Below are positions 39,136-64,000 of a DNA stretch of 64,000 nucleotides, piece by piece. Position numbers and translations under genes: made by a program. Every line of letters begins with the position of its first letter. The stretch's first letter is position 1. This DNA is from Microbotryum violaceum (Eukaryota), in NCBI GenBank assembly GCA_001244265.2, contig LN717261.1, positions 3,053,591 through 3,117,590 of the forward strand. The letters are read 5' to 3'. Below the pieces are notes generated by a model. That model saw only the letters and a list, made by a program, of their open reading frames with translations, did not search any database and was not told the DNA's origin.

Positions 39136-42100
39136 CCTACTTTACTAGTTTCCATACCCGTTTCCTTAAAAATATCTTAAGCTAACTTAAACTATCCTTA
39201 GAACTATATTACTACCTCTATATATATAAAAAGGTCGATCCGCGACCATGTACCTAAAATCGCTATTTTTGACTGTGTTGCGGCCCTCTGGGCCGCCTAT
39301 AGTGAATGCACCAGTACAGTATTGGGTCTGCCGCACCTGCCTGTATTATTGGCGTCCCGACCAGAAGTCATGTACGACCTTTTTCGCATTTTCTGCACCA
39401 TAAAAGTCGAGCTACAGCCCGAGGAAAATTTTTGTTGATTTTTGGCAGGGTGCGCAACTATTGAGCAGTTTGTGTGGGATTTAATGCATAGCAAGCGCGT
39501 GGGTTTGCATGACACTTCTTCTACAGAGCTCAGAGGTTGTCCCGCTGTCTTTGCGGGCGCGGCTTACGGATGCGCCGTCAATCACGTGATGTGTATTGTT
39601 TACAACGCGACACCGGTTTTAGGGGCTGAACAACAACAGGATCTTCCAGGGGCTGTAAATAGTCCCGCGATACTCTCTCTAATTCTTTCCTTTCCCTCCC
39701 ACTCACCGAATTTTTGTGACAACCGCGCCGAGTCTGGCGCGAGGATAGCGTACCGCCGTGCCATGGGAGACCATGGGCCTGCTCGAGCTTACTCGAGCGC
39801 CTGCTGCTTGGCCCGCTGCTCGACTCTCCTCTTTGTCCCGCTCCGATCAACAGAATCAGCTCCCCGCGCACAATGACAACCACTCGACCGATCTTGGTAT
39901 TACGACCCGTATAAGCGTCCGCCGTACAGCTTTGTAGAACGGACGGCGTGGTCAGCGCGAGGGCCCGATGGCCGATCCGACGCTGAGCTCGCCCCACCAC
40001 CACCTCTTCCTGCGCAGAGGCAAGTGCGCAGGCCTCGAATCGCGCTCAAACCCCTCAAGCCCCACGTTTCGATCCGCGATGGCCTCGGCCCGCAGACGGC
40101 CGTGTGCACCCACTGCAAGGCTCGGCACTGGGAGTGCGAAAGGTCCAAGTCGACCAGACACTTCAGCGCGTGCTGCTCGCAAGGCAAGGTGCGGCTACCT
40201 CGCCCTCCCCAGCCCAATCTCGAGTATCGGCAGCTTCTTCAAGGCTCGGATAGCGGTCAGTTGCTCCGTCCAACAACGTTCGTCTGCAGTAGACCCACAT
40301 GCTGAACTGTTCTACCCACCCACACAGAAGCTAAAGCATTCCGCGAGAATGCCCGGTCGTACAACAACTTGAACGCGCTGTCTTCACTTCGCTCGCTGCC
40401 CACTTTGACCAGACTCGACTAGGCACTCAAGGACCCCGCATGTTTCGGATATTTCGACGCCTTTACCATCGACTCGGCGCCTCTCAGCGCCCTGATTCCT
40501 GCCGTCAATCAGCGCCCAACCTTTGCCAAAACATGGCTCATATGCCCGGCCGAGGCCACCGACACTCAACTTGGACCCGACGGCGCAGACAGTCGCATAC
40601 AAAGATCTACTTTGACCAAGCTCGATTCTACGTTGCGTACCGGCAATCGCTTGGTGAGGGAACTTGCATCAACCAAAGCTCGCGCAGGTTAGGCCAAAGA
40701 GTGGGTCCTGCGCCTCTGCCTACCACCTTGCCGAGACCGACGCACCCACAACCTTCCTACGTCGAGCACCGAAATGGCGATGCTTATCTGGAATTCCGAC
40801 ACCAACACGGGAGATCGTGGACCTCAAGACCTTATTCTCCAGGTGCACGGTGATCGATGTCCCAATGGTCGGCCCAAGTACCAAATCGTTAGCTCGCTCC
40901 ATCCGTCTGCGATGCCTCTCCGTTACCCACTACTCTTCCCCGCAGAGGAAGATAGCTTTCACCTCAACATTCCTCTTTGCGCGTTCAACCAATTTGGGCC
41001 ACTCTTTACCAAAAGACCGCGACGAGGAGGAAGGGGACGCAGAGAATGGTGATGGTGAACGTAAGCCCTTTCGGCTCTTTCTCTGATGTTCCATTCTGCC
41101 GAAGGCGCAAGCACAGACTGACATTGAACTTTTGAACACCTAGGACGAAGGTCAAGTAAAGGGGTCGAGGTGGCGAGTCTCGCGTTCACAATTCTTTGCG
41201 CACTACTTGCCAAACGCGACGAGCACTTCTCAATCCCGCATTGCACCCAACGTGCCTTCCTGGCGTTCGTGATGACGGATACGCCCAGGTCGAGACCGAT
41301 CGACTCAACTTACCTCCAGTTGGATCAAGGAAAACCTCCGCCTCACCACGGGCCAAGGCATCATCAGCTTGACCCCGGATCAAGTTGGATGTTCGGTGAT
41401 TTTGGGCTCAACGTTCAAGAATAGACCGCGCGAGAGCACGCAGCGTTAACAAGATGATATGACGCGTGCGTCGTAAAATATGGAAAGCCTTCGTTGTTCA
41501 TCACGGTGACGTGCCACCCCGAATGGCCTGAAATCAAGGCTGCACTGGGACCGAACGACCAAGCATGCAACCGACCGGAACTCATTGCACGAGCGTTTGA
41601 AGCCAAGTTGAACCGACTCTGCGACAACGACGTTTTTGGCAACAAGCAACGGGCAGGCTGTTTGGCCGATGAATGGAGAACTGTTTCTTTGCTGTACTTC
41701 GTAGTGTGCTTATTTAACCTCTGTTGAAATCATGTAGACTGTTCAATTGTGCTGCTATTTGAATTTCACCCTCCCGTTAATTTAACGGGTTCCCACTGGT
41801 AATAAAAAACCCCTTAAAACTATCCTTAAAACTAGATAATAAAAACCGTCCTGAGACAAAGACAAACCACGTGGTGTGACGTCGTAGGCAGCTCTCGGTG
41901 CAGCGTCCCAGCTAGCTAGCGCTGTTTCAGACCGTTTCGCCTACGTTCGCCGAGTTCCATTGAATAGCACGTGACTCTCTGTGTCCCGAAGCAGACTCTT
42001 TTGCGTGTCTACCACGTCGACGTCAAAGAACGTCAGAGAACGGGAGACAAACCACGTGGCGACTGACCGTTTCGTCCACGTTCGTCGAGGTTCCATTTTC

Positions 42101-43785: not shown

Positions 43786-44305
43786 TTACTACCTCCATAA
43801 AAATAAAAAGGTGAGTTAAGGAATGTACCTAAAATCGCTGTTTTTAACGAGGTTGCGGCCTGGAGGGCCGCCTGTGGTGGATGTACCAGCATACTGTTGT
43901 GTCTGCCGCACCTGCCTGTGGTGTTGGGGTTCCGATCAGAAGTCATGTACAAGCCCTATGTTGACTTTTGTATTTTCCGCGCCGTTCCAACGAAGCTACA
44001 GCGCTCCCAGTATTTTCTTTCTTTTCTTCGCTGACATAAAACAATGCTTCCACTCATATGGTATTTAATGAACCGCAAGCGCGTGGCTTTGCACGATACT
44101 GCTCCTACAGCAGAGCTCTGCCTGACGCGCAAGGCGAGGGCTGGCGTCTGTCACGTGATGCGGTGCGCCGGCGGTGGAGTGTCATTCCGGCATTCGACCA
44201 GCGGCATTAGGGGCTGAACAACAAATCAAACCACGTAAATAATCCTGCGCCACTCCCTCGAACCTTTCCTTTCTCCCTCCCACTCTCATCCAATTTTAGT
44301 GACAC
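43786..44305 (+). mobile_element. Helitron 5'-end fragment
   Basis: A|TTACTACCTC start; colinear with 39209-39720. Confidence 0.75.
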
Positions 44306-44309
44306 TCAT

Positions 44310-45146
44310 TCAAGAACAAACCTTCGCTACTATGCCCCGGTCCCAAGGTCGCCAGGGACTCAGGGTGGCGTGCGAGGTGCTCGCGCAGGACTTGCACGCC
44401 GGGGCGACGGGGCAATCCTTACGGACGTGAGCCGCGGAACGGCAGAAGACGCAGTTGCGCATGCCACCGGTGATCCTCAGTGGGATTCGCTCGGTGAGAC
44501 CGTCACGAGCAATAGAAAGTGAGGCAGGGGGCAAAACATCTACATCCTTAAGGGCAAGGATAAAGCCGTACACCCCAGAGATGTGTTTCGTCTTTCCAAT
44601 GTATTGGATGCGACGACGGAGGACCGTGCCATAGGCAGCGATCTGCTCATCGAATAGGCAGAGGCCCTCGGGGTCGGAGAAAAAGCCCGTAAGGGTGCAT
44701 TGTACAACACCTCCTCTAGTAGAGCTGTAAAGCTTCTCGACTTTGCACAGAGTCTTGCCAACAGTGAGGCCGTTGGCCACCAGGGTGTCGAGATCGGCGG
44801 CCTTGGGAAAGCGGAGGCCGCGCTGACCCTTGATGACGCATGGCATTGCGCCGGTAAGGCCAGGGTAGTATTTGTCAAGCGCGAGGAGGACTTGCTCGAC
44901 CGAGGTTGAGGGTGGGGTGTTGATGATGACACAATTCTCGATGTTGTGCATCAGTGGATGGGCGGCGACGGCAGTCGAGGCGTTGGCGGTGGCGTTTCCG
45001 TGCTTCGCAGCGGAGCGGGCGCCGACCGCGGCGGAGTATGATTTGGTGGTGGTGGCGGGGGCTTGGCCGGGGGGATCGGGAGGGTCAGGGCGAAGAGGTG
45101 GTATAGCAGCATGGCTGGCGTTGTTGGTGTTGTTTCTGTTGTCCAT
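44310..45146 (-). pseudogene. Non-LTR retrotransposon (LINE) ORF1 / gag-like protein, 3'-truncated
   Basis: PDPPDPP and SYSAAV N-terminus; CCHC knuckle CVFCRSAAHVRKDC and a partial second knuckle CKSCASTSH; no ORF2 follows. Confidence 0.65.
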
Positions 45147-45408
45147 CCAATAGGAGTTTCGACGGCACTGGTGGATTGAAAAAGATGAGACTCCTTTCCT
45201 TTAATAAAACGAGCGGGCACGAATTCCAGGCGAAGCTAATCGCCCTTCCTTGGGCCCCCCATTAGAGTGCACAGAGTAAAAAATAAGTCGGTGGCAGAAC
45301 CAGAGGATTAATAGGCTCAATACAACCAAGCAATTGTTGCATACTCCTGAGCCGTATGGGGTAACTGCGTTGGGTAAGCCCTCAACGACGCTCGGCGTGC
45401 GCCATTAT

Positions 45409-45560
45409 TAGGGGCCACTTTGATAGTTTTTCATAGCTAACTATCCCAACTATAGTTATTTAACTAACTATTGGGTCATAGTTGATAGTTAGATAGTTAT
45501 GGCTGGAAGGTGGGATTTTACACATAGTCAACTAGCTAACTATGGAGCAACTAAGCTTAA
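45409..45560. repeat. Probable TIR-transposon terminus (hAT-like TAGGGG start) with many ATAGTT/AACTAT subterminal motifs
   Basis: About 10 copies of the motif in both orientations; no partner end found. Confidence 0.4.
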
Positions 45561-46802
45561 GCGTAGCCTCGCCGCCTGCTCGGCAAGGTCTGCCAACCCG
45601 GTGACTCGTCAAAAGGCCACGAGTGCGTCTCTAGAGACGACGACAGCCTCGTTTGAAAAGAGGTGAGCAAGTAGTACGTGGGCTGGAGCCAGCGTCTTCA
45701 CACGGCCACGCATGCGACCCTGCCAGGCTCAACCAGATGCATGATCTCAAGGACCTGGCTCCTCGATGCGGAGAGTAGAAGAATCAATTTGGATTGTGGA
45801 TTGTCAAATATAAGGGAAGACATAGGATACAACATGAAGTCGGAATCGAGCGCGGGTCGAGCAATGATGATGGCGCAGAGGAAAAGCTTCGCAACCACGG
45901 CCCAACCACCGCAATCGATCGCTTGCAACCTGGACTGAACAAAGCCAACGTATACAGTGTCAGCATCATGCGTCAAAGTTAACGATTCAAATCGTATGAG
46001 TTCCCTTTCTCCTTCATCAGTAAAGAACGGGGGGTGACGATGAGCTCAGTTTAAACTAGCTGATTCGAACGTTTCTCAACAGGCCACCTTCCCCCCCAAA
46101 AGGAGGAAGGTGTTCGTGATGTCCCTATCAAGGCATGATTGTCGTCATAGCTCGGCGTATAACTGGGTTTGGATGAGTGACTTACCGTGTGGGATGTGGG
46201 TGGATGGGAGGAGAGAGGGGCGGTCGCTTTCGTTTCTTCGTCGAGCCAGCCGTCGATTTTACTGGTCGAAACGGATCTGCGAGAGAAACCCGTGATGGGG
46301 ACGATTGGCTATGTCCTAACTTTTGGGGTAGGAATCCTTTGCTTCAAAATTCTCGTGGTGCTTATTGAAGCCGGAAATTACGGAAACGAAATTCCAACAG
46401 GCCGCACGCCGGCTGCGGGCTATGGGAGCTGGAGGAACTGCGAGATTAGCTTAATGGTTAAAACACCTACTTCACGTAGGGGCTAGTAGCCCGCTCATGG
46501 AAATATGCTGGCTCAGCGTGCTGTCCTCCGGGACTTCTGACCCGGAACCGCTTGGCCTCTGTGCACATAGTTGAGCGTTGTAGGTTGTCGATTGGGCCCC
46601 CTCGACCCCACAGCAGAGCCTGGCCGGCGGTCGCCACCGAGAGGACAAGGGGTCAACTCTCCAAAGCCGCTTGCACAGTGATTTTAGCGAGAGGTGATGT
46701 CATGTTGCAGCGGGGCTCGAGAAACCGAAAGGGACCGTGTCGTAACTAACAACTTGGTCACTATTGAAATGTATCAAAGTGAGAAAGAGACATTAGAGTG
46801 TA

Positions 46803-48851
46803 CCAGTGGGAACCCGTTAAATTAACGGGAGTATCAAATTCAAAAAAAAAGCAGGATAATCGAACAGTCTACATGATCTCAGCGCAGAGGTTAAGAATAT
46901 ACAATACGAAATACAGCAAAGAAACGAAATACATTCATTCTACATTCATCGCCGAAACAGCCTGCATGTCGCTTGTTGCCGGACTTGGCTTCAAACAATT
47001 GTGCAGTGAGATCCGGACGGTTGCCCGCTTTGTCATTCGGTCCCAGTGCAGCCATGATCTCCGGTGATTCGGGGTCGTACGTCATCGTGATGAGCAGCGG
47101 AGGCTTTCCATGTTTGACAGCGCACGTCATCGCATCCTGGTCTCGCTGCGTGATGTCGCAATTTGGTTCGGGGTCAAGCCGTTGAAGCCTTGGGTCGTGG
47201 TGAGGCGTAGGTTCTCTTGATGCAACCGGATGTGTTGAGTCAATCGGTCTTGACTTGGGAGTACATCCGTAAATCACAAACTCCAGGAAGGGACGTTGGT
47301 TGCAATGCGGAATTGAGAAGTAATCGTCGCGTTTGGCAAGTAGTGCGCAAAGAATTGTGAACGCGATACTCACCACCTCGACCCGTTTGCTTGACCTTCG
47401 TCCTAGGTGTTCAAAAGTTCAATGTCAGTCTGTGCTTGCGCCTTAGACAGAATGGAGCCTCAGGGAAAGAGCCGAAGACGCGTACGTTCGCCATCACCAT
47501 CCTCTTCGTCCCCTTCCTCGCCGTCTTCATCCTCATTGTCGCGGTCTTCGTCCTCCTGTTCGTCTTCGTCATCCAGACCAAGACCGGCAAGTACCTCGCG
47601 CAATTGGACACCATTGTCGATCTGCTCTCGGTTTCTGGCGATTGGCGGCCCGGCTTGGTCGAACCCGCAAAGAGGAATGTTGGGGTGGAAGCCATCTTCC
47701 CCTGCAGGAAAAAGTAGTGGGTAACGGAGAGGCATCACGGACGGATGGAGCGAGCTAACGACTTGGTACTTGGGCCGACCATCGGGACATCGATCACCGT
47801 GCACCTGGAGAATAAGGTCTTGACGTCCACGATCTCCCGTGTTGGTGTCGGAATCGCAGATAAGCATCGCCATTTCCGTGCTCGACGTAGGAAGGTTGTG
47901 GGTGCGTCGGTCTCGGCCTGGTGGTAGGCAGAGGCGCAGGACCCACTCTTTGGCCGTATCCCAACCCGCGCGGGCTTTGGCCGATGCGAACTCACTCACA
48001 AAGCGATTGCCGGTGCGCAACATGGACTCGAGCTTGGTCAAAGTAGATCGTTGCATGTGACTGTCTGCGCTGTCGGGTCCTTGAAGTCGTGTGTCGGTGG
48101 CCTCGGCCGGGTCGATCAGCCATGTCTGGGCAAAGGCTGGGCGTTGATTCACGGCAGGGATCAGGGCACCGAGTCGATGATAGAGGCGGCCAAACACGCG
48201 AAACACGGGGGGTCCTAGCGTGCCCACTTGAGTTTGGTCCCAGAGGGCAGCGAGCGAAGTGAACGACAACGCGTTGTTGTACGACCGGGCATTCTCGCGG
48301 AATGCTTTAGCTTCTGTGTGGGTGGGTAGAACAGTTCAGCATGTGGGTCTACTGCAGACGAACGTTGTTGGACGGAGCAACTGACCGCTATCCGAGCCTT
48401 GAAGAAGCTGCCGATACTCGAGATTGGGCTGGGGAGGGCGAGGTAGCCGCACCTTGCCTTGCGAGCAGCACGCGCTGAAGTGTCTGGTCGACTTGGACCT
48501 TTCGCACTCCCAGTGCCGAGCCTTGCAGTGGGTGCACACGGCCGTCTGGGGGCCGAGGTCGTCGCGGATCGAAACGTGGGCTTGAGGGGTTTCAGCGCGA
48601 TTCGAGCCCGGCGCACTCGCCTTTGCGGAGGAGGTGGTGGTGGGGCGAGCCCAGCGTCGAGTTGGCCATCGCGCTGACCACGCTGTCCGTTCTGCACAGC
48701 TGCACGGCGGGCTCGTATACGTGTCGCAATGCCAAGATCGGTTGAATTGTTGTCATGACGCGCCGGGGTCTGATTCTGTTGATCGGAGCGGGACGAAGAG
48801 GAGGGTCGAGCCGCGGGGCGCCCAGCAGCGGGCGCTCGAGCAGGCCCATGG
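46803..48851 (-). mobile_element. Non-autonomous (chimeric) Helitron, 5'-truncated
   Basis: Hairpin and CTGG|T at 46803; 46803-47650 resembles 31668-32680, while 47650-48851 is near-identical to about 27075-28281. Confidence 0.9.
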
Positions 48852-48857
48852 TAGGAG

Positions 48858-50703
48858 AGGACCCATGAAAGCCCAGCCTGAGGCGCGTAGGTAAAATTCG
48901 GGAAAATCGCTGATTTTGGACCTCATTTGTCCACCATTTTTTGGAATTTTCGCCCAAAAAAGTCCTCAAAATGTCCAGTCCATCTACGCGCCTCAAAAAA
49001 TAGCTCTAGGATTTTTTGCTCTAAAACATTTCCAAAAATCGCGAAAACGCCGTCCGGACGTTTTTCGCTCGGGCCGAATCGGCGGAGCACGCGCACGTGT
49101 CAGCCAGTTCGGTTCTGCTTGGCTGAGGCTTGCTGCCTTCCTTTTTGACCCTACATCTTTCACACCCTTCATTTGATTATTCAAGGACACAGAAGCGTTC
49201 CTTAATCCGTTGCAGCGTCGAAGAAAACAGAACCTTACCTCAGCCTGCTGGCTTAAGTCGAAGACACGCTCCCCGAGGTATGCGACTGAATCCTGGGGTG
49301 CGAGAGTGAGGGCGGGCGTTGAGGATGATTCCAAGGATTGAATAATTTGTCGAGCATCGAGTCCAAAGAAGCGAGTCGTGCCGTCAATCATATGCGTTGA
49401 ATAACGGCCCTTGCTCACAAGTCGCCATTCTTGGAGGACGACATTCGAGATAATGGGAGGGAGTCGGTCTCCGCTCTGTCGCAATGATTTGACGTGGTCT
49501 TGGCATACATGTAACGTACTACGAGAGGTAAAATCGATGCCAGTCACTCTGCAAAGCAGTAAGCTAGCTACAGTGAGCTGTACGAACTAAGTCCAATGGA
49601 CAATTGTTCTTCTCCTATGTTGCTGGCGTCACAACTGCCAGGTATGATGCTTCGTTTCAATCCGAAGCAGACAAGAGAGCCGATTTTCAAAGGCATGGCT
49701 GACGTGACGTTTCCGTCAATCGACCCAAACGTTGGGATCTTGGCGAATACCATGTATTGCCTTGCTCGCAATTGCATCCGTACCTAGGCAGAAATGAACA
49801 TTATTGATGAGCACTCTCTGGGCCATATGTGCACAGCACACAATTGTGGCTCACTTCTTTACGTCCCTCTTCGATGTATCCTATGTTGTCTGTCTCGTTG
49901 CGGTCGAATAGCGACTGAACGTCCCTTGTTCTGTCCAACGAAGGGACCTTGCAACTCCTGACACGGTTTCGAGACGGGCTGCACCCATTGAACGCACAAA
50001 GCCTCGGAGGACACTGGAGTGCATTTCACCGTGCTCGGACAATTTTGCTTTTGATGTGGGATCGGAAACTTGGGAAGTCGAGGTGGTGGTGCCGTGCCTT
50101 CCCTTGAGTAGGACAGCTCTGAGGTGGGCACATTGATGTGCCCGACGGTGCTCGATCAAGCTTTTCGGATCAAGCGCAAGCTGACGAGTGTCGTGACGCA
50201 GAAGGGATGGGAGCCGAAGAATTTGAGCCTGTGAAAGAGTGCTGGTTCTGTTTAGTGGTTCTGCAAGAAGACAGTTGCTACTTAAATGAACCTACACGAC
50301 CTGGCAAGCTTTCATTTGCTGTCTCAATGGCGTCGAGTAGAAAGCGTTCCTCTGCTTGAGCATCGACCGCGTCATAGGCCTGCTGAATGGCAAGCCTAGA
50401 ATTGGAAGATACGTATCATCAGCTCGGAGGAGACTGGTAGGTCTCAAGCACTCAAATTACAGTGCAGCATCATTGTCAAGGCCAAGAGCAGCTAAAGAGC
50501 GAACAGCGTTTTCAACTGACTTCCGCTCTTTCGGGTCCAGCACGACGAGACCTTTCTCCAAGCCACGTTGTCCATAGAAAAAGCACGAAAAATAATCCCA
50601 ATCAACCACGCCATCGGACAGACGAACAATTTGGCTGCTTACCAACGGAATCGAGCCGCGTGTGCAAGAATGCACTACACCCGAGGATCATTGAGGGGGT
50701 ATA
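48858..50703 (-). mobile_element. Truncated copy (C) of the Ulp1/P-like transposon (3' part only)
   Basis: TIR AGGACCCATGAAAGCCCAGCCTGAGGCGCGT at 48858; colinear with 1310-2832; retains the C-terminal coding region (48993-49547) partly deleted in copy A. Confidence 0.85.
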
Positions 50704-53700
50704 CGTACGCGCGAGTGCAAGAGGGCCTGAGAATTTGATAGGCCTGATCCCGCGCGTGACAAACTGGGTCTTTTCCTCATGTTTGGCTCTGCATCGGATC
50801 AGGTGTGTACTTCGCGTATTCATGCCTCAATGTGTTAAATGATTAACTCTGACGTTTGGCTCTGCATCGGATCAGTCCATTGTTCAACTTGGTAGCGTCT
50901 GTCCCTGCCGTAAGGCAAACAAACCCTCGCACGACTAGACTAGATCGATCAACCATCACGCCTCGTCACGGCTCTCGCCGCACCCATGCCGCAAATCAAT
51001 GTCGCCTCCACCAAGGCCATACTCGGACCCTGTTTCGGCAAGATTAATGCCGGCAATTGGTCGCTTGCCAAAGAGCAACTGGAGATGGCACTCGAGAGCG
51101 ACAAGCATCTCGTCCCACTTCAAACGGTCACTCCCCTGCCCACGATGCTCACGTTCCACGCCTTCACCAAAGACTCCGTCCTCGATGCAGTAGGCTAGTA
51201 CAACCACCAGCAATCTTATCATCAAGCCAAGGCCAAGCAGGCGGTGACCATCAAGAGTGCAAAGGCTCATCTGATGATGTGTGTGGGCCAGGCGACTCGA
51301 GTCGGTCTTCGCCGCGACCTCGAGCACCGTCGACCGCAGCGCATGCCTCGTTGAGCTGGTCACCATGCTCCAGTTTGTCATCGGCGACGACTTCGAGACT
51401 TGGCTTGCCACCTTCCGAGCGACCGTCAATGCGATCAACAACGCGGTCAAGCACGCCCAACCCTCGACGGCGCCGTGTGGGTGCGACCCCGACCCTTTGC
51501 ACCCGATGATCGTCCGGGACTGGCTGTGCAACCTGATGCCCGAAGCCTACGCTCTCACTATCAACGCACTCGGCGACAATGTTGACATCGGAAAGATGGA
51601 GCAGGTGTTAGGCTGTTCGGCACTTAGTGATCACACCCGGCGCGAGCAGGCCCAAGCTCTCGTGGCCCGTCTTAATCCCGCACCTGCGTCTTCGGCACCG
51701 CTCGCTAACCGCCTGTCGCAGCGCCGCAGCGGCCCAGGCTCGCGCGACCCACCGTACCAGCCACACGGGACCGCACCTCAACGCGCGCAAACTTCACAAA
51801 ATCGCCAAGTGGCCATCCGTAGTCTCGAAGAGAGGCCGGCTTGGTCTCTTCCCGACCCAATGTTTCTTGTGTTACAAGGATGGTCACCTTGCGACCGCTT
51901 GCACGGTTCTCGACCACCTCCGCATCAAGTCCAAGGTTGACATGTTGAAGGAATACAGCATCCCCGTCACGTTGGAGCAAGCTCGCGCGCTTGTGCACAA
52001 CACTCTCAACCAGGAGGAGCACACCAAGGCTTTGGCGGCGCACGCGCAGTTGGCCCAATTTGACGACAATGACAACAAGACAATGGAGGCTTCCGCGGCC
52101 AGCTGGCACATCAGGATTTCGGGCGAGGACACCGAGCAGTGTTTCAACATCGACGCGGCAACTCCGTTCCTGCTCAACTCGGGTGCCACGAGGCACATGA
52201 CGACGAGGCTCAACCTCCTTCACGACTATTGCCCATCCCCGACCAATTGCCGCGTCCGTGTCACCGGCGCAATCGGTTCCGGAGGTTTTGCGAGCGGCAC
52301 CGGCTCCCTGCGTTTCTCGACCGGTGGCAAAGACATGGTTCTCCGCGATGTTCTTCATGCCCCTGGCCTCGAAGCGGAGCTTGTTTCTCTTCATTGCCTC
52401 ATCGAGGATGGTTATGGCGTACGCGTCACATCGGCATCCGAGACGCGCGGCCTCATAGTCTCTCACGGCAACGTCGAAGCCCACTTCCAACTTCGCAACA
52501 AGCAATTCGTCCTCAAGGCAAGTCCCCTCGCACCCACTCTCCTCCGTGATTCTGCGCTTAACGTCGCCCTATCTCCCTCCGCAGATCTGTCACTCTGGCA
52601 CGGTCGCTTGGGACATGGTGGGGTTAAAGCAGTGTTGGCGTGCGGGAGAGCGGGGTCGATTGGGTTGAATACTGCTGCTGTAACGCCGGACTCGATCCAA
52701 CTCGTCAAAACCTGTGTTCCCTGTCATTTGGGAAAAAATGTTGCGCAACGATCCCACGCTGCCGCAACGCACCGCGCAACCGCTCCCTTGAGTCGAGTCT
52801 TCATGGACCTTTGGGGTCCCGGTCCAGTTGTTTTCCTCTCAGGTCATCGCTACCTTTGCGGTGGTACGGATGAGTATTCTCGTTATCGCTGGCTCCGTGG
52901 TATCACAGCGAAGAGCGACGCAACACGTGCGATTCAGGACCTCGTTGCGTTCTCATGCGTTCAGTACCCTGGCTCGTCGTTTTGAACGCTCGTGCCCGAC
53001 CGCGGTGGGGAATTTGTCAACAAGCAGTTGGACGGCTGGCTTGCGTCACGGGGTGTTGTACATGAGCTATCAGCGCCATACAAACACGGTCAGATGGGCT
53101 TGCAGAAACGTTCCTGGCGCTCAATCTTTGACAAGGTCCGCACCTCTTTGGCCCAATCCGGCCTGCCACTCTTCCTCTGGGAAGGAGCTGCCCACGCCGC
53201 CGTGTACGCCCTCAACCTGACGGCAACCCCTGTGCTCAACAACTTGACTTCAGACTTAGTCCTACACGCCTCCGGTGACCCCGTGGCCGAACACCGTCGC
53301 CCACACGGATCCCGCCTCCGTGTTTGGGGCTGCCGGGCGCTCGTCCCACTACTGCCGGAACAGCGCGGGCACAAGCTCACGCCCCGGTCTCGTCTCGTCA
53401 CTGCTTCTTTGTTGGCTACTCGCAGACGTCTCAAGCCTGGCGTTTTTACGACCCCGCTCGCCGCAAAGTGTTCGAGTCGTCTCAAGCCACCTTCTTCAAA
53501 CAGGAATTCGGCCGGCCGCACAACGCAATGGAGATGCGGACGCTACGACAATAGACCAGTCCTATGCACAACAACAGTTCGTCCATCGCCGCGGCTCCCA
53601 AAGACACCATCGACAACAACGATACAATTTCTGAGGACTCGCTGCCCCTTCTCAGTCCGCCCCATGTGTCCGTCGCCAAGCAGCCTGTGCCTCCTGTCCA

Positions 53701-55896
53701 CGGCACAGCACCACCACCGCAGGGGCTCGCCTTCAACAACCCGGGACCAGCCTGGTCAGCTCCGCTCGGCAATCGATCATCTCGTAATCGCGGACCTCCA
53801 GAGCGCCTTGGCAACTTCACAATGGCGGCAACAGCCGTCACCAAGTTCGCCGCCGACAAGGCGCACACCGTCAAAATCATCGACTTTGAATGGGCCTTCT
53901 GTTGAGTTGACACTTGAGGAGTACGCTCTGCAGGCTACATGAGCGCGAGCGCGCGCAGGCTTTCTCTTAGCTTCCTTCTGATTTGAGCGTTCTAACGTAT
54001 TGAACCACCTCGAATCAGGTCAGTAGTATTCACAGTATCATTGCAATAGTTGAATGAGCATTCTAACATATTGAACCACCTCGAATCAGACGCCGAGATT
54101 CTAGACCTTCACCACCCGCCCAAGCCCCGACGCCCCGACTTATTGGGAAGCGATGTTGAGTAAGGACCGGGAAATGTGGCTCCTGGCGATCGAGACCAAA
54201 AAGGCCGCGCTCGCAGCAAAGGGGACGTTCTCTTCGCCGCTCTTCAATCTGCCACCCGTCACACCCATCATCAAGAGCAAATGGGTCCTCGCAATCAAAC
54301 GCGACAGCGAAGGCCGCATTGAGAAATACAAGGCTCGTCTCGTTGCTCGCGGCGATATGCAAAAGGCTGGCCGCAATTACAAGGAAACCTTCTCGCCCAC
54401 CGGTCGCGCCGCTTCACACCGGCTCCTGCTCGCTTTGGCTGTCGAGAATGAGTGGGAAACCCGCCAATTTGATGTCTCTTCTGCATACCTCAATGGGTAA
54501 ATGGGTGATTTTGTCGTTCACATGGAGCTCCCAGACACGTCAGTTGTCCGCTTGTACAAAACCCTCTACGGCCTGTGTCAAGCAGGTCGGGAGTGGTACA
54601 AGGTCTTCGCGGGCTGGATCGAGTCAATGGGTTTTGTCCGCACCGAAAGCAATCACGCTGTATTTGTCAAGTCCGAAGGGGCGCGCAACCTGTTCCTTTC
54701 CATCCACGTCGACGGCGGCCTGCTTACCGGTGATGGCGACCTCGATGGCTTCATCCAACAACTCAAATCTCGTTTCGACGCGAAAAGCTCCGACAAGGCG
54801 ACCTTCTTCCTCGGTCAACGCATTCTCCGGGATGGCAAGACGGGTGCAGTGATCGTTCACCAGCCCCACTTAATCTCATCAATCCTGGAAGACCACGACA
54901 TGGCGGGATGCAGTTCGAGGTCGACACCAATCTCGCTCTACAAGTCACACCCGCGTAAGGACATCACTTTCGACGCTTCGACAAAGCCGTACCGCACAAT
55001 CGTCGGCAAATTCCTCTTCCTCAGCGGAACCACGCGGCCTGACATTGCCTTCGCGGTATCAAAGGTTGCATCACATTGCAACAACTTTTCGCAACAAGAT
55101 TGGGAGGCTTTGTTGCACATCCTCCGATACCTCAAGGGAACCCAAGACATCGGACTTCTGTTCCGCAAGGCGGAGGGTGCTCCTCTCCTCAAGGGCTTTG
55201 TTGACGCCGATCACGGAGCGGACCCGGAGACTCGTCAAAGTGTCACAGGTTTTGTGTTCCTTTGCGCGGGTGGCGCGGTCTCGTGGATGTCCAAGCGACA
55301 GGCGCTTGTCACCGTATCCAGCACCGAGGCCGAGTACGTTGCTATGTTGTTTGCTGCGCGCGAGGGCATCTGGCTTCGTCGCTTCCTTGCCGAGCTCGGC
55401 TTTGCCCAGAGCGAACCAACAAAGCTTCATGGCGACAACCAGTCGGAAATCCAGCTCGCCAAACACCCGGCCTTCCATGCTCGTACTAAGCACATCGGCA
55501 TCCACTTTCACTTCATCCGAGACCACATTGCCGAGGGTACGATTGAGATGGTCTGGATTCCCACGAACATGATGGCGGCGGACGTCTTGACCAAAGGGCT
55601 CGGGTTGCGAAAGCACTGGGATTTTGTACACGCAATGGGTTTGGTAGATGCATCGCGTGAAGGGGCGAGTTGGAAGGAGCGAAGAGCGGTCGAGGAGGTC
55701 TGTGCGGCGTACGCGCGAGTGCAAGAGGGCCTGAATAGAATTTGATGGGCCTGATCCCGCGCGTGACAGACTGGGTCTTTTCCTCACGTTTGGCTCTGCA
55801 TCGGATCAGGTGTGTACTTCGCGTATTCATGCCTCAAGGTGTTGAATGATTAACTCTGACGTTTGGCTCTGCATCGGATCAGTCCATTGTTCAACT
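50704..55896 (+). mobile_element. Ty1/copia LTR retrotransposon, near full-length but degenerate
   Basis: 5' LTR 50704-50889 (lacks about 40 bp) and 3' LTR 55668-55896; PBS TGGTAGCG (tRNA-iMet-like); purine tract GAAGGGGCG; protease LLNSGATRHM; integrase WHGRLGH..FMDLWG..DRGGEF; RT YKARLVARG, LYGLCQAG, HVDG; RNaseH FVDAD..SSTEAEY..ADVLTKGL. Confidence 0.95.
53900..54105 (+). mobile_element. Solo LTR (206 bp) inserted in the copia pol gene, with a 5-bp TSD
   Basis: CCTTC at 53895-53899 and 54106-54110; removal restores the frame FEWAFTTRPSPDAPTYWEAM; ends TGTTG...TAGA. Confidence 0.85.
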
Positions 55897-56003
55897 CCCA
55901 CTTTAACCAACCCAGAAAATAGCAAGTTCTCATCCCCACCCTCGACCCTCGATTATCTCATTGTTTCGGCGTCTGACTCCCACTATTCGTATTCCCCATC
56001 GAG

Positions 56004-59000
56004 CTATCGCTCGTACCCCTCACACCCCTCGAAAAAGGGAACACAGGCCCCCGTCCCTCCTCCCCCATTCGCAGGTGATGGTGCTCTCCCCGTCGCCGTC
56101 ATTGAAGAAGGTTCCGAGATCGAAGCACCCGAGAGGGATCCTGTCACTCGCGGCCGAATTGGTGCCGATGTTCGAGAGGATGAAGTTGTCCCCAAGGTGA
56201 TTGTCGAATGATATGTCGATTGACCCTGATAAAACTCCGCCTCATTCCCTTCGGCTTCCGAAAACGACGCCCTCCTTTTCTGATTAACAGGGAACGTCGC
56301 CGACCCCGGCGAAACAAGCGACGAGAGGATGTCCGAAAACGAACCCGTAAAATCGGTCGGTGCTTGATGCCTCAACTTGTCCAACGGTCCTCCACTTCTT
56401 GCCGAGGGCGAAACAAGATAGGGACTTCCAGGTTGGGAGGGGGATCCATTACCTTCTTCAATGTAATCGTCCATCCCTTCGAGGGTGACGAGCGATTTCC
56501 TCTTCTCGCGCAGGATTGCCTTCTTGGTCGCTTGTCGACGACTTGCAGTGGCGTTGGAGAAAACGGGCAAGAGGTAGCGCTCATCCAGCACGGTGAACCA
56601 TTGACCGTCCCTCCATACTCGCGTGTTGTCCCCTTCCCCTGCGGTGGCGGCGGCTCCTGTCCCAGCTTTGGACACCGAAGGCAAGACGTCCCCTTCGGAA
56701 TCCGAGCCGCTGTCCCGTGACGAATGGGAAGGCGATGAGGGTCCTTTGAAGGATCCATGCGGATGCAATGTCCCCCCCATCTTTGGTACTGAAGAAGGTG
56801 GTGTGGTGGAAACCACCGACTTCAACGCCATCCGATCACTGTACGGCGAATCCATCGCCGACACCACCCCCTCCTCCTCTTCATTGCGTCCTGCATGCCC
56901 ATTTCCACCAAACTTGCGACTGTTCGGCAAACTCCTCCTCGCTTTGTGAGTCGCCAATCCAGCGGCCTTGTTCCATCCGGCTGCGGATCGAGTTCCCTCA
57001 ATATCGCCTTCCCCGTTGTTAGTTATCGCGTACCCAGCTCCACCTTCATCATCCGAGCTCTCGGGATCATCATCCTCGACGCCGGTTCGAATGCCAAGAA
57101 TTTCAATCATCCTCCCGATCGTGCCACCAAAGACGACGACGGTCAACACGACCGAGACCAGTACTGTCGTTCGTAAGGCGATGGCGTTGGGTCCTTTCAT
57201 CCCTTCGGCCAAAGCGACACCGACGGCTCCTCGGAGCCCGGCCCAGAAGAGCATCATCTGGTACGAGTGAGGCAGCTCATCGGCCCGGTTGCCGCGCGCT
57301 TTGAAGAATACGTTGATGCCTTTGGAGATGGGGAAGACGGCGCAGTAACGAGCGATGCAAACGGCGAACTGCGTGAGCATGCACGCCACTAGGGTCAGTC
57401 CTCTACGTCTTGAAGTTATAGGGACACGGGACACAGCACGCACTGCAGTGACGAGGATGAACATGGGTTTGTACACGAGCTGCGTTTGGGTGAACAAGCT
57501 TAGTCCGAGGTAGATGAAGATAAAGTTCTCGCTCAGTTGCGCGAGTGAGCCAAACATGTAACGCGACGTGCGTTGGGTCCGATGCGACATGTTGTGGTAC
57601 GCGTAGTGCTTGAGCGTGATCCCGCAGAAAAGGAGAGAGACGATGCCTGCCGCATGTATCACGGATTCAGCCTGCATAGCCAGCGATGTGATGAGTCTGA
57701 TGCGAAGAAACTCACCACTCATAGTCACGGCGTTGGAGAAGAAGTAACTCGTGTACGCGATCAAGAAGACGAGACAACTTTCAATTTCCGTGTAGCGACC
57801 TGTGCGCGAATGGACTCTCACAAGGTCAGCACGCGCTGCAACAGCGCCGTCAGAGCTCCGTTCAACGGACCCAATTCGGAATGCTTGAGCATCAACGAGC
57901 ACGCCAGACCAAAGACGACACCGAGCAACATGGACACGCAGAAGGTGAGCAGAAAAATGCCGACGCCGTGGAAGAAGGAGAGCACATGTATTTTTTCTCC
58001 GTGAAATTGGGATAGCGTTCTGTGCGCGGCCCCGCGATTGTGAAATCAGCTCGAGAACGCAGCAGACTTTGGACCCGTTTCAGACCACTCACTCGAACAT
58101 GACGATGGCGACGGCGTCATTGAGGATGCTCTCGCCAAAGATAACCGAGTAGAGCTTGGGGTCGACGTGAAGCGCATTGAAGATGGCCAGAATCGTGACC
58201 GGGTCCGTGGCAGAGAGGGTCGAACCAAACTGGAGACATTCGATGATGTTCAAGGATAGACCCTCGAGTCCGAGGAGCGAATAGATGTAGACGATGACTC
58301 TGTAGCACGGAGGAGAGAGGGGTGAGCCAAACATTTTTGCGGGTGGCTGAGGTGAAGAACAAGGCTGACCCGAGTACGACGGCCGAGATAAAGGTCCCGG
58401 CAAAAGCAAAGGTGATGATGACGCCAAAGTTGCGAAAAAAGTTTTCCTGTTGCCCACAAAAACATCAGGGATTGGATCTGCAAGCGATTTTTTGATCCAA
58501 CGACGGAGGCGACGAACCTGCTTGAGCTGATAGCCCGAGTTGAGGATGATGGGTGGGAGCAGTACGTTGAGCAGGATGGTGCTCTTGAACGAGATCATGG
58601 TCTGGATGACGTTGCCCGGTGCGAGTCGTACGAGCAGACCGACACACATGCCTGGGGAGGGGACCATGTGAGGTCGCAGTCAGGAAGCGGCAAAGCGAAA
58701 GTAGCTTGTAGCTGGCGATGATGCTGTGGAACTGACCTGCAAACATGGCAACGATAGTTTCATGGATGGAGCGAATCCTTCGAATCTTGAGGTAGTACGA
58801 CACCCAAAAGGACAGGATGAGGAGCAAGAGCACCTGAGCGGGAGCGGGAGCAGGAGCAGGGGAGATGGGGACCAAGCGGAGGTCAGGCATGCTGAGCAAG
58901 ACGAATACGCTCCAACGGGTGATTAGCGAAGTGCATCTGCACGATGTGTTTCTGTCGTCCAGTCGTCGTCGGGTCGGCTGGACTGCGCAGCGTGTGCTGC

Positions 59001-59170
59001 GGCTGACCGTCTGCGCCCTTGCAACCACGGGTAGGCCAGAAACCAACCGACGAACGTACCAGTAACAAAGCCCTCGAACTCCACAGCTCCTCTGTCTCTG
59101 GATCGAGCTCGGGCATGGTGCTGATCGGAGTGGTCGGCACTTTGGCCAGGCCCCCGTTCGGGCTCGACAT
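56004..59170 (-). CDS. NHX1: Endosomal/prevacuolar Na+(K+)/H+ exchanger, multi-exon
   Basis: IHETIVAMFAG; LLPPIILNSGY; FGSTLSATDPVTILAIF; IFGESILNDAVAIV; HYAYHNMS; FWAGLRGAVGVALA. Confidence 0.94.
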
Positions 59171-59572
59171 CGTCACTCGTCACTGGTGAGCAGACGGTTA
59201 GTAGTGGTGGGGCGACTTGAGCGTGCTGAGAGCTCAGAGACGAGAGATGTAACTGAGCTGAGTTGCAGAGGTGCTTGCTCGACCGAGACGGTTATCGCAG
59301 TGAGCCTGCTCGCTTGGAGGTGACAAGGGGATGATGGATGGTGACGTGCGCAGCTGGGCGACCAGTCCACAACGCGCTGACGACGACGAGAAACACCACA
59401 GATGACTATCGACCTGGTGTTGAGACCAAAATATCGATTCGTCTCTAGCGGATCAGTAGGCGATCTCCAGTCGTGCAGTGGCCGTGCCTCACTAATCGGT
59501 GGCTCGTAGTGACGCGTCGCCAACAGAGCGCGCGGAATAGAGCAAAACCGAGTGCTTGAGTAGGCTTGCGTA

Positions 59573-59939
59573 CACATGCGCGCGCGCAAATTATGGGGGG
59601 CATAAGGCAGCTTTTGCCCTATGAGGCCCGTAGGGCAAGTTTCGGGATTCCATAAGGCATTTTGTAATGCCTCGATAAGAATGAGATCCTTAAGGCCTCC
59701 GTAGGGCTTCCCTAGCGCCTCCCTACGGCGAGGCCATAAGGATTTCCCCCTAGCGCGCGCATACGGTCACCGTAGTGCTTTCATACGGCGGCCATCGGGA
59801 AAGTCCTTCAGGCATCGGGGTTGGGGAGCCCTATGGCGGCCGTCGTCCAGCCATATGGGACCGATAGGGATCGTTTTATGGCTCTTAAGGACGGGCCATA
59901 TGGCACACGCAGGGATGCCGTACGGGCTCGATGAGGTCG
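59573..59939. mobile_element. Partial non-autonomous element related to 747-1128
   Basis: ta|CACATGCGCGCGCG...TTATGG terminus; interior rich in CATA/CGTA/TACG motifs. Confidence 0.35.
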
Positions 59940-60303
59940 CACTACAGTAGAATAAATCTGCTGCAATACGGAAGCCATGGTTGTCCGCCCAAGAGTCGCG
60001 TTCGGTCGCAGATAGTACTTCGGTCTACAGGGCTGATCATTGTACAGTGGGTTTCCACCCTTGTCACACGACTATCCCTGAAGCTCGTTAGAGCTGAAGG
60101 TTTCGTTTCCAAAAATGGTGGGGGGGTCCCAGCCTCGAAAATGATGCTATTTTGAGATTTTATTGGACGAAATGGCCGAAATACCCCGCACGCGCGTGGC
60201 TGTTGAAGTCCCATAGGAGAGCCCGATTTCAGCGCCGATCGGTTTGAACAATGCTCCCCCGGATAGGAGGACCCCGGCTAAGCGCGCCGATCATTTTGTA
60301 GTA
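59940..60303. mobile_element. Possible small CACTA element
   Basis: CACTACAG start and TGTAGTA near 60303 (one mismatch to TGTAGTG); no TSD. Confidence 0.25.
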
Positions 60304-60988
60304 CTGCCTTGTTCTAACTTGGACCGAGTTTCCTCGCATCTCTAAGACAGGCTATTACACAACCGCCGTCATGTCATGCTTTCTGATCTTGTACACCTCC
60401 GCACTATCGAGGTCAGCCCACTGCAGTGCACAGCGTTCGAATTTCGGCAACGTGTTAAGCCTCGCGTCCACCACTAGCGACAGCCGATCCTCCCGCCGCA
60501 CCGATCAAGCACAGTATGTGTATTCCGGTCCGCTCTTACGCAACAGTCCAGTGTCAGCACTCGATGATGTGGTTGACAAATGCAGTCTTGGGCAGCTCGT
60601 GCGCAGCAGCATCAACTTCAGCATGGATCTCCTGGAGCTTTTTGGGGCGCATCACGTGAAAGGATACTCCAGGAGGAACCCGCTTGCGGAAGAGCTATCC
60701 CTACAAGCGCTCCTTTAGTCGTGCGATCCCCACTGTAATGCTTGTTCAAATGGGTATGTTTTTAGAAGGCAACAAGCGAAGCGGCGAGTCCCGTGACTCG
60801 GCCACGTCGTCATTGCTTCTCCGACTATAGAGCATACGCATCAAAACCTATTGACGTGCTTCGAGCCTGACTGAACGAGGGAAGTCCAGACGAACCGCGA
60901 GAACGACGTCTCAGGGACTGACTCTAAACAAACGCTGCACAGACGTCCACCGCTGCATCCCGAACCCGCACAAGAAGATCCCGGTAAA

Positions 60989-62760
60989 GTGACATCGCAT
61001 TTTGCGCCAGCATCCGATCAGTTCAAGACAGAGAACCGTTCTGAATGGAATGATTACTTCAGCGACGCTCGTTCCCGTCTCTTCTGCTGCCTGGTGTGTT
61101 CCGAGAGAGTGTTTGGGCATAACGTCCGATGGGTGCCTGAAGACGACATCAAGGGTGAGGGATCAGGGAGTTGGAGATTAACCAACTCTACACTACGGAC
61201 GGACCTCCGACTTACGATTTTTCAGCTTGACGGGGCGCGCTCATCCATCCCCGACCTCTCCATCGACCGAGCGACTCTTTAATCGATCAGATCGCGTACT
61301 CGCCGACGAACAACACGCTTCAGTGCTCGCTCTGTCCAGATTGCTTCAAACGACTATTCTTACCACAGGGCCACCAACTAAGCCCCCTCGGTCGTTGAGC
61401 AACGATTTTATCCCGCACTGGATCACGTCTCCGCTGATGTCCGAGATTGCTTCTCCAACGCGAGTCAGCTTGAGCACCTCGTCACTGCGCGCGCCAGAGC
61501 CTACAAGATCGTGTACAAGCTAACTCGTTTCCGATATCCCGAAAGCGCAACAAGAACCTACGTGCGAAAACACCCTCATCTTCAGCCAGAACACCGCTTC
61601 GTTCACCGATGTACTGCCCATGTCAGTCGAGGAACTCGCTGACAGTGTGTTTGCATTTTATTCTGCGGAGGGAGCTCCAACCTTGCGGAGCTGGACAAGT
61701 GTCGACCCGTGATCGTGAAGCAGAGTCGGATCCACAAGATGCTCAGGTGGTTGATCAATGAAAGCAAGAATTCGGCGCACTCTGCCGTCTCCTTTGATGG
61801 CGATTGCACAGCTCGTTCGACGCAGTTCCGGCCCGGGTGCGCTCAACCCGACCTCTCCAGCTTCTACGGCGGTTTCAGCTTTCACTTCGATTTCGGCTTC
61901 CGTCTGGGTTGCTCCCCAAGTATCGGATCGACAAATCGCGGATGGAGACGGTCTCGTGCCCGACGTAGTTTTGGCGAATGTGGTGACCGCAGAGACAGTG
62001 GAACCAACATCATCGCTCTTTGAAGGCTACGCAACAACGCACTGCATAACGACTCTGATGAACCAGTATTCGAACACGTCCATGTGCCGCCACCCCTACC
62101 GACGAACCAATTCACTCATGACTGCTCTTTGAGAAAGCTCTCCGTTATCTCAACCAGGACAAGCCCACCTATGTCATTCCGACAGGCGACGCCCCTTTGT
62201 GGGAACTCTCGGACGAGCTCGTGCTCTCAAAGCTGTGGCCACACCTCGATCCATTTGGTCTCATCGATTTCTGTGTCGAGCGCAACCTCAAGATTTCTCT
62301 GGACGAGCAAGTCAACCATTTGTTCAATTTATACGACAGCGATTTCGATGCGACCCGTCTTTCCCATTCATCGTCTCGAACATGCTCCGCCGACGAGAAG
62401 TGTTTCGCCAACTCGCTTTTCGGGTCCCCAAAGAGAAGGTGGCTCGAATCGGAGCAGCACTGCTCGAAATCGACATGGATGTTGTGTCCGAAATGATAAA
62501 AAAATCGAGGACACCAAAAGGTACAAGGCAACAACAGAAGCAGAGAAGCATATCAACCGTATTATGGCGGAATTGCACAGTGTCGGAGACAAAATTCACG
62601 GCACAACTGCGCAAATGCTCGACATGAGGAATTAGATCCGCGGAAAAGTCAACGCGTTCGGTATGTACACCTTCTTCCGTCACCGTCAACCAGGCAGATT
62701 TACACTCACCGTTGCGATGACGAGGTATCTCAGCTTTGGGCGCATCAAGGACAAGATTCT
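60989..62760 (+). pseudogene. Degenerate N-terminal half of a Helitron2/Helentron-type Rep-helicase (DUF6570-like + Helitron_like_N)
   Basis: CLVCSE..CPDCFKRL..PPRSLSN; VLPMSVEEL; VKQSRIHKMLRWL; LWPHLDPFG..R.ISLDEQVNHL; RFRCDPSFPFIVSNMLRR; IHGT..MRN.IRG..FG..VTVNQADLHSP; many frameshifts. Confidence 0.6.
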
Positions 62761-63264
62761 CGACCAAGCAGATACCGTTTAGGCCAACGACAAAAATTCA
62801 TCTAATCGTGGGTTGTAACGCTATTCCCACTGTGAAAGATCTGTGGGGAATACTGACACTCCTTGCCATTTGATTCCCATGTCTCTCAGCGGTGGACACA
62901 TTCACCACGCCTAGCGAGGCCATCTCGCGCCCAAGTCGCTCCCGGAAGTCCCGATCTCTCAACATCAACTGAAATCACTTCTTACAGCTGACTTCGGTGA
63001 GCGCGCGATGTGGGTCCCCAACGCTGACGACCACATGCGAACACAAACTCGTCCAGACGCGCACTGTGACATGGGCGATGTCGAGTGATCTCAGCTTATG
63101 CATTTACGCCCCGGCTCGGGCTCGATCTCGTTGTCTGCAAGGTTCATTAACGTTTGGCACATTTACACGCCTCATTCATGTGAACCGAACTGACTCGGGA
63201 ACTCGGTGCTGCATACCCGATCCATGAAACGTATTTAGTAATACTAGCTGACGCTGTCAGTCGG

Positions 63265-63565
63265 TGTTATGTACTCCGTCAGAGGTTCAGGGACCCGTCG
63301 CCCCTTCCGGGGGCGCGTTAATGTTTTCTTGCATTCTCAAGCTCAACATCGCGTACGTGGCCGAGCAGCCTCCGAGCAGCCTCCGAGGGGCCACTCGGTC
63401 TCTCAGTGCTTGTCTGCGGCTTGCGGGTGGCTCCGGCCGTGCCCGGGGGCGGGGGCTGAGACCGACCGGTTGTGAGAGAGGAGGCGAGAGGAGGCGAGAG
63501 GAGCCAGCTGGAGCGGCCCTGGCGCTTTCGCGGAGCCCCGCCCTCTCTTTGCTGCCCATGTGACA
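63265..63565. mobile_element. Possible solo LTR
   Basis: TGTTA...TGACA ends and internal short tandem repeats (ccgagcagcct, gagaggaggc); no TSD. Confidence 0.3.
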
Positions 63566-64000
63566 ATCCCGGGCACAACACGCCCCTCGACAGCCAACAC
63601 GATGTCCGTTCAGTTGAGGGACTTGGAACAAGTCATGGAGAAGGGTGGGTGCTAACGACGTCATGGTTCCCGGCCGACCTGGGTGGTAGGGACTCCTTGC
63701 GGCACTCGGACCCCCGCCCAGCCGCCGGCTCGCAGTCGCGTTGACGCGAACACTTTCATCATGTCATCATCCTCATCGTCATCATCCACAGACTTTGTAT
63801 TAGTACACAAGCGTGCCCGATTCGTCGCATCCCCGGTATCCCTTCCCCAGGCAGAACGTGCGCCGATCTACTCTCGTTGCTCCGGAATCACGCGATCGGC
63901 CAGGAGCTGACCCCCTTGCGAACATAGATGATGATCATCGTCGTTTTTCTCAGATCCCACAAACGCCGGGTCGGCGTGCAAGAGCTGGACGACATGCTTG

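Follow-up and report, generated by a model that had tools for sequence, protein, structure and literature searches.

How can an element that copies itself through RNA keep an intron? Since retroelements copy via RNA, a spliced intron should be lost, and the known exceptions either have unspliced RNA for their genome or, as in Penelope elements, are unexplained. The question is raised by a 64,000-nucleotide (nt) stretch of the Microbotryum violaceum genome (assembly GCA_001244265.2, contig LN717261.1, positions 3,053,591 to 3,117,590), the whole of which is referred to here as the window. The window is a stretch of fungal genome rich in transposons, and in it the long terminal repeats (LTRs) of two Ty1/copia elements, named here Copia-1 and Copia-2, and a solo LTR contain a GT..AG segment bracketed by a direct repeat. 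This layout suggests how a leader intron could be spliced and nevertheless inherited. All coordinates count from the window start, unless a locus with an L number is named.

The solo LTR (53900–54105, 206 bp; plus strand, as are all LTR features given below) is nested in the pol gene of Copia-2. Its repeat 1 (53984–54018), which follows a pyrimidine-rich tract, ends in CAG and is the predicted exon 1 and repeat region (R). It is followed by an intron-like segment of 71 nt (54019–54089) that opens with GTCAGT and closes with CAG, the A of its CTAAC lying 23 nt before the 3′ end. The last 35 nt of the segment are repeat 2 (54055–54089; 33 of 35 positions identical to repeat 1), and the 16 nt that remain (54090–54105) are the predicted unique 5′ region (U5). 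At both repeat mismatches (53996–54003 versus 54067–54074), copy 2 has an A in place of the G of a CG dinucleotide, which fits post-insertion decay of what would initially have been a perfect 35-nt repeat. The 5′ LTR of Copia-2 (50704–50889) carries exact repeats (22/22; 50781–50802 and 50854–50875), a segment of 73 nt (50803–50875; GTGTGT, CTGAC at 23 nt from the 3′ end, CAG) and a U5-like tail of 14 nt (50876–50889). Its 3′ LTR (55708–55896; 95.8% identity to the 5′ LTR) shows the same signals in a 73-nt segment (55810–55882) between exact 24/24 repeats (55786–55809 and 55859–55882). In the long-form LTR of Copia-1 (31264–31551), two exact 59-nt repeats (31414–31472 and 31493–31551) flank a spacer (31473–31492) that reads G followed by GTTAGT, and the segment that begins with this GTTAGT measures 79 nt if a G follows the LTR. 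An earlier note on this DNA, made from its letters alone, had described these bracketed segments, and its coordinates hold in the sequence; for Copia-1 the layout and the GTTAGT start at 31474 stand, and the repeat length of 57 is corrected to 59.

The repeat edges coincide with splice sites far beyond chance. Direct repeats that match exactly over 12 nt or more and lie 40–160 nt apart were collected from both strands of the window and of 20 related loci described below (216,031 bases). In 8 of the 72 repeats found, GT follows copy 1 and AG closes copy 2, and every one of these eight is in a copia LTR, on its sense strand. When intron-like GT..AG segments are considered instead, 2,543 of 2,547 have at most 7 nt in common between their upstream flank and their 3′ end; the remaining four are the LTR segments, which share 25–35 nt, where about 0.025 such coincidences are expected. 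Ordinary host introns are without such a repeat.

The splice signals of the LTR segments can be compared with those of introns that the host removes. Four runs (X18, X20, X10 and X1) were aligned to 44101–64000, of which X10 and X18 behave as RNA. X10 includes Copia-2-like RNA contigs at a word depth of about 50–560. Together X10 and X18 show seven CT..AC joints in a Na+/H+ exchanger gene, and their joints excise ten minus-strand segments and one plus-strand segment, giving 11 validated introns in the window. These measure 65–85 nt and have mostly GTNNGT-type donors, YAG acceptors and YTNAY branch sites, the latter mostly 18–28 nt from the end. The LTR segments of the solo LTR, Copia-2 and Copia-1 measure 71, 73 and 79 nt, respectively, with donors GTCAGT, GTGTGT and GTTAGT, branch sites CTAAC, CTGAC and CTCAC at 23, 23 and 18 nt from the end, and acceptors CAG, CAG and TAG. 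In donor, branch site, acceptor and length they fall among U2-type GT–AG introns of the host range, in agreement with the earlier remark that their sizes are typical of short introns.

The same note had taken the three LTR families to be unrelated, which does not stand. The solo and Copia-2 LTRs align across repeat, spacer and repeat, and all carriers that can be placed fall in one reverse transcriptase (RT) clade. Alignment-based scans returned 16 loci from metagenome contigs and 4 from genome contigs; a single-protein scan of metagenome contigs and a scan of viral contigs gave no match. The layout is present in three of the 20 loci. In L001 a repeat (48–68) is followed by GTGAGC..CTGAC..CAG (69–148), a 10-nt tail (U5) and the primer-binding site (PBS) TGGTAGCGCC at 159, and L004 and L008 carry a more elaborate form described below. 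In an RT–RNase H tree of 18 rows, built without L012, L015 and L016 (matches shorter than 150 residues) and without Copia-1, which has no RT to place, Copia-2, L001, L004 and L008 form one group (support 82/88) that splits into two deep sub-clades, each supported at 100/100. None of the other 14 rows of the tree shows the layout. Some ten elements outside this group could be judged, and the layout is absent wherever LTRs are readable (L003/L002, L005, L009, L017, L019 and L020); two of these layout-less elements have a Copia-1-type primer site. The Copia-1 integrase shares 34% identity with the L004 lineage and 31% with that of Copia-2. The named relatives of L004 are Agaricomycete proteins (55–58% identity), and those nearest to the copia polyprotein of the window are Microbotryum proteins (59–87%). 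The layout is more plausibly a conserved, probably inherited design than the outcome of three independent inventions. Two further observations concern the loci themselves: L004 (103–3260) consists of two tandem copia elements with one common LTR (end of pol, LTR at 1677–1919, then the next PBS and gag), and L017–L020 are copia elements inside contigs labelled as bacterial metagenome-assembled genomes, likely reflecting eukaryotic contamination of bacterial bins.

The two repeats of an LTR evolve in concert. The repeats of the solo LTR and of Copia-2 are identical at 18 of 29 positions between the families, versus 28/29 and 25–26/29 within each LTR, and in a 22-nt core all eight family-specific differences are common to both copies (scored by eye on the alignment). 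L004 and L008 behave in the same way. Each of their LTRs contains two units, A and B, which between the families are identical at 15/26 and 8/18 positions, respectively; within the LTR, A and B together agree at 37/38 positions in L004 and 39/41 in L008. Near-identity within LTRs combined with divergence between families indicates that one repeat keeps being copied onto the other.

The build of L004 and L008 suggests which form of the repeat is copied. In L004, A1 (1775–1798) is separated from B1 (1852–1865) by a 53-nt segment, i1 (1799–1851; GTTAGT, CTAAC, TAG). B1 is followed by a 17-nt spacer that opens with GT, and then by A2 and B2, which are contiguous (1883–1920), the last G of B2 being the first primer-site base. 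L008 is built alike (A1 at 1285–1308, i1 of 51 nt, B1, a 16-nt spacer and A2B2 to 1434). In both loci the downstream unit equals the upstream unit minus a segment with exact GT..AG bounds, so that the downstream repeat looks like a copy of a spliced leader. The missing i1 cannot be put down to deletion via a direct repeat, as L004 retains both CTGAG words. Homogenisation of the repeats through reverse transcription would require prior removal of i1 from the RNA.

The position of the acceptor relative to the LTR end differs between lineages. The LTRs of Copia-1, L004 and L008 end in CA, and their acceptor AG needs the G that opens the primer site, as at the L004 junction (ACA followed by GGTTATGAG). 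For Copia-1 it had been claimed that the acceptor is supplied at the junction of the 5′ LTR with the PBS, and a G does follow the LTR there (28490/28491). The base after the 3′ LTR is C in both L008 and Copia-1. Because the first PBS base completes the acceptor, only the 5′ copy could be spliced in this lineage, in which the primer site is of the anticodon-loop type (see below). A distance of 10–16 nt separates the acceptor from the LTR end in Copia-2, the solo LTR and L001; if the acceptor marks the R/U5 border, the RNA would end there without a downstream exon. Upstream of the repeats, the 20 nt before repeat 1 are 65–100% pyrimidine in five of six families (window mean, 50%), and pyrimidine-rich tracts precede fungal transcription start sites. 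About 75–80 nt 5′ of the donor, a GCGCGAG-containing motif recurs in Copia-2 (50704–50720), the solo LTR (53940–53960) and L001 (1–20); it could be a common promoter element of the unique 3′ region (U3).

Taken together, these features make it reasonably probable that a leader intron is spliced and then rebuilt by reverse transcription in each cycle. According to this proposal, the LTR would comprise U3, exon 1 (equal to R), an intron-specific spacer, a second copy of exon 1 and a U5 of 0–16 nt. Transcription would begin at the 5′ edge of repeat 1, after the pyrimidine-rich tract, and the stretch of the 5′ LTR that opens with the GT behind repeat 1 and closes with the final AG of repeat 2 would be spliced out as an ordinary short intron. 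The spliced leader, repeat 1 joined to U5 and PBS, would then be identical in sequence to repeat 2 with U5 and PBS in the DNA. At the 3′ end of the RNA the segment would be unspliceable, since the RNA would stop at or near repeat 2, and in the anticodon-loop lineage the acceptor AG would exist only with the PBS G after the LTR. Minus-strand strong-stop DNA made from the spliced leader would anneal to the terminal repeat 2 and extend through spacer, repeat 1 and U3. Both progeny LTRs would thereby regain the intron, repeat 1 overwriting repeat 2 in every cycle, and strong-stop DNA landing on repeat 1 instead would yield short, intron-less LTRs as by-products. The Copia-1 5′ LTR (28282–28490), with a single copy of the 59-nt repeat (28432–28490), is exactly this predicted short form; its alignment with the long form (28281–28495 with 31263–31477) is 100% identical over 215 bp, including the first PBS bases. 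We infer that the segment is spliced in vivo, where transcription starts and the RNA is polyadenylated, which repeat serves as landing site and what the element gains. A spliced 5′ leader and a landing on repeat 2 had been proposed in the earlier note, and both gain indirect support from the concerted repeats, from the intron-less downstream copy in L004 and L008, from the retention of the layout across a deep copia clade and from the host-like signals; its interpretation as a whole is partly supported.

Several observations weigh against this proposal. Among the 15 joints listed of the 84 found, none falls at 50802/50876, 54018/54090 or 55809/55883; the joint 53894>54106, which is present in an X18 contig, is likewise missing from these 15. 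Gene conversion or repeated re-duplication could equally homogenise the repeats, and in the one-intron layout the short form that splicing gives would also result from deletion between direct repeats. L004 (GTATAT) and L008 (GTACCT) each have a weak second donor without the usual G at position 5, L001 has no pyrimidine tract before repeat 1, and the implied U3, only about 77–85 nt long in the solo LTR and Copia-2, leaves little room for a promoter. The layout is found outside the window in three loci only, all of them metagenome contigs of unknown host. Copia-1 itself is irregular: its RT is cut at 31262/31263 and fused directly to the first base of the long-form LTR, and no target duplication is present on either reading, so that the long LTR could be the product of a rearrangement.

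Other explanations account for parts of the evidence. The intron might be spliced only in the messenger form while unspliced RNA is packaged as in retroviruses, in which case R would span repeat 1, spacer and repeat 2 and the intron would be inherited passively. Unspliced RNA would rebuild the same LTR with no special step, as the established logic of LTR replication has it, and the splice signals are good. The flanking repeats would then be a relic of the origin of the intron, or would aid splicing or strand transfer in some other way, and reverse transcription of spliced RNA, if it happens occasionally, would suffice to produce the intron-less copy of L004 and L008 once. A single old event leaves unexplained, however, why repeats within an LTR are 96–100% identical when families differ by about 40%, and why both deep sub-clades keep a layout in which the repeat edges fall exactly on the two splice sites, and this explanation is considered unlikely. 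It seems still harder to uphold, and quite improbable, that no splicing takes place and that transcription starts at repeat 2 as the sole R, with repeat 1 and the spacer belonging to U3, for instance as a duplicated initiator or enhancer, and the GT..AG bounds without function. Such an LTR would follow the standard plan and require no new mechanism, its U3 would have a more usual length of 150–170 nt, duplications within U3 are common in retroviruses, and the joints listed include no LTR junction. Yet donor, branch site and acceptor lie exactly at the repeat edges in every carrier, a piece of U3 would be evolving in concert with R, and the downstream unit of L004 and L008 lacks i1 exactly at GT..AG, none of which would be explained. 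Nor can the repeats be a head-to-tail tandem duplication of an enhancer or of U3, a candidate that was rejected: only the flank of 22–59 nt is repeated, the spacer being present once, and Tandem Repeats Finder detects no array at the LTR repeat sites.

That the repeats arose by slippage or template switching during strand transfer, or by local rearrangement, and resemble introns by coincidence is scarcely credible. Direct repeats are well known to be gained and lost during reverse transcription, and the Copia-1 copy is clearly rearranged. Against this stand the four strict and eight relaxed matches, all on the sense strand of copia LTRs, where about 0.025 coincidences are expected, and the conservation of the signals across families whose LTRs have otherwise diverged. 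Transcription from repeat 2 combined with a poly(A) site after repeat 1 was also considered and rejected, as the spacer would vanish from the progeny. Likewise rejected was a small-RNA gene of the kind that LTRs of Helenus or Cassandra elements carry, since an Rfam scan of the LTRs gave no match.

How the intron arose in the first place is a separate matter. Origin by tandem duplication of an AGGT-containing sequence is rejected for the solo LTR, Copia-2 and L001, where copy 2 is followed by ACGCCG, TCCATT and GGCCGC, respectively, rather than by a donor. It is possible for Copia-1 and L004, where copy 2 in the 5′ context is followed by GGT of the PBS. In these two the first donor, G followed by GTTAGT, resembles the start of the primer site after repeat 2, G followed by GTTATGAG (31473–31479 and 28491–28497 in Copia-1; 1799–1804 and 1921–1926 in L004). 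The intron of the anticodon-loop lineage may thus have begun as a duplication of R together with the start of the PBS, the PBS copy having mutated to a donor.

Splicing is familiar among retroelements in other forms. In deltaretroviruses and foamy viruses the major splice donor lies in R, and in HIV-1 the 5′ poly(A) site is suppressed by a downstream donor. These retroviruses resemble the present LTRs in having a donor in the repeated leader and in the different behaviour of their 5′ and 3′ LTR copies; unlike the present LTRs, they use acceptors far downstream, make subgenomic mRNAs and keep the unspliced RNA as genome. To our knowledge no such retrovirus has an acceptor inside the LTR or a duplicated R. 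In DIRS-type elements an internal copy of terminal sequence likewise rebuilds ends missing from the template RNA, but these elements have a tyrosine recombinase and split or inverted repeats, and no intron. The Drosophila copia gag mRNA, BARE and Ogre provide cases of copia or gypsy elements processed by the host spliceosome; in contrast to the LTR segments, their introns lie in the internal region, their spliced mRNAs are non-genomic, and the introns persist via unspliced template.

A partial literature search returned no description of an LTR-internal intron bracketed by a duplicated R. In Penelope the pLTR holds the start site and a 75-bp intron of the 5′ untranslated region (UTR), and Penelope-like elements are called highly unusual for retaining introns, the reason being stated as unknown (PMC8557442). 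As is proposed for the present LTRs, a short spliceosomal intron survives rounds of retrotransposition within the portion of the 5′ UTR that belongs to the terminal repeat. Penelope-like elements nevertheless differ in their telomerase-like RT, GIY-YIG endonuclease and target-primed reverse transcription, whereas the elements of the window, in which only the copia domains RVT_2 and rve are found, have a Ty1/copia RT and tRNA priming with strand transfers, and their layout itself suggests a route of retention. In split-intron retroviral vectors, reverse transcription assembles the leader intron of the provirus (Ismail et al. 2000, via PMC3182074). Those vectors are engineered, and their intron, assembled a single time, extends across the packaging signal, so that spliced RNA cannot be packaged; the present layout is natural, with the intron wholly in the LTR 5′ of the PBS, and would leave spliced RNA able to replicate. 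The Penelope 5′-UTR intron is the nearest natural case and the split-intron vector the nearest engineered one.

The remaining anatomy of the two elements is that of the Ty1/copia group (Pseudoviridae). Both show the Pfam order Pol_BBD, gag_pre-integrs, rve, SH3_retrovirus and RVT_2, that is, a polyprotein with protease, integrase, RT and RNase H in this succession, and both have direct LTRs and a tRNA PBS adjoining the 5′ LTR. The PBS of Copia-2, TGGTAGCGTC (also given as TGGTAGCG), lies at 50890–50899 and opens an internal region (50890–55707) that encodes gag, protease, integrase and RT–RNase H and is interrupted by the solo LTR. The latter is flanked by a 5-bp target duplication, CCTTC (53895–53899 and 54106–54110), and its empty site is represented by an X18 contig that connects 53894 with 54106. 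In Copia-1 the PBS GGTTATGAGCCCC (GGTTATGAGCC) follows the short-form LTR directly, and the long-form LTR adjoins the truncated RT. The Copia-2 PBS presumably matches the 3′ end of initiator tRNA-Met and that of Copia-1 the anticodon loop of the same tRNA. Anticodon-loop PBSs, including those for initiator tRNA-Met, occur in fungal LTR elements (PMC10886601). The window contains no tRNA gene with which the PBSs could be compared. Target duplications were sought for Copia-1 and Copia-2 and none was found, the flanks of both being rearranged. Those of Copia-1 are inverted copies of another repeat family (26363–28282 versus 31668–32500), which has four copies in both orientations at 82–94% identity (26300–28280, 31668–32684, 39792–41666 and 46800–48850) and one copy of which is the Copia-1 insertion site. 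Its long open reading frames (ORFs) contain no clear Pfam domain, only a weak CENP-B dimerisation match below the cut-off, and Pfam searches of neighbouring repeat ORFs gave nothing useful.

Two other features of the window lie outside the LTRs. A repeated, intron-containing unit is transcribed from the minus strand at 49400–50700, where X10 shows the minus-strand joints 49781>49853, 50227>50295 and 50394>50460 at high depth; a further copy occupies 1310–2832, being 90% identical over 1622–2832, and the sampled ORFs of the unit have no Pfam match. At 13552–14020 an A-rich tract of about 470 nt is composed of A-rich units with a period of 22, which is unusual in a sequence of 55% G+C.

What an element would gain from such an intron is likely splicing-dependent accumulation or export of its mRNA. 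In Cryptococcus neoformans, most of the genes tested accumulate far less mRNA once their introns are removed (PMC3744415). The element might also benefit by ridding its 5′ copy of a poly(A) signal: the spacer of L008 contains AATAAA about 40 nt before the LTR end, and splicing might, speculatively, also strip this signal. As a tentative generalization, for which the odds are felt to be slightly unfavourable, a whole basidiomycete clade of Ty1/copia elements, in hosts ranging from Microbotryum-like smuts to Agaricomycete-like fungi, would replicate via spliced genomic RNA. One or two leader introns would be kept by a terminal, intron-less copy of exon 1 that serves both as intron 3′ end and as landing pad for strong-stop DNA. 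The 3′ copy would be unspliceable by design, its acceptor being completed only by U5 or the PBS, and the intron would supply the splicing mark required by these hosts for mRNA accumulation, or shield the element from surveillance directed at RNA that lacks introns or is badly spliced. In the anticodon-loop lineage a duplicated PBS start, GTTATG, may have given rise to the donor GTTAGT.

The layout shows simply how an LTR element could possess an intron that is inherited and yet open to splicing in each of its transcripts. If the proposal is true, it would add a new rule of LTR anatomy, an R duplicated around an intron, and annotation of LTRs would gain from allowing for two Rs in LTRs of this kind. 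It would also suggest compact, intron-bearing leaders for basidiomycete expression constructs. For the fungi themselves, it would explain how copia elements are expressed in hosts that need introns for mRNA accumulation, and it would bear on how splicing-linked genome defence perceives transposons.

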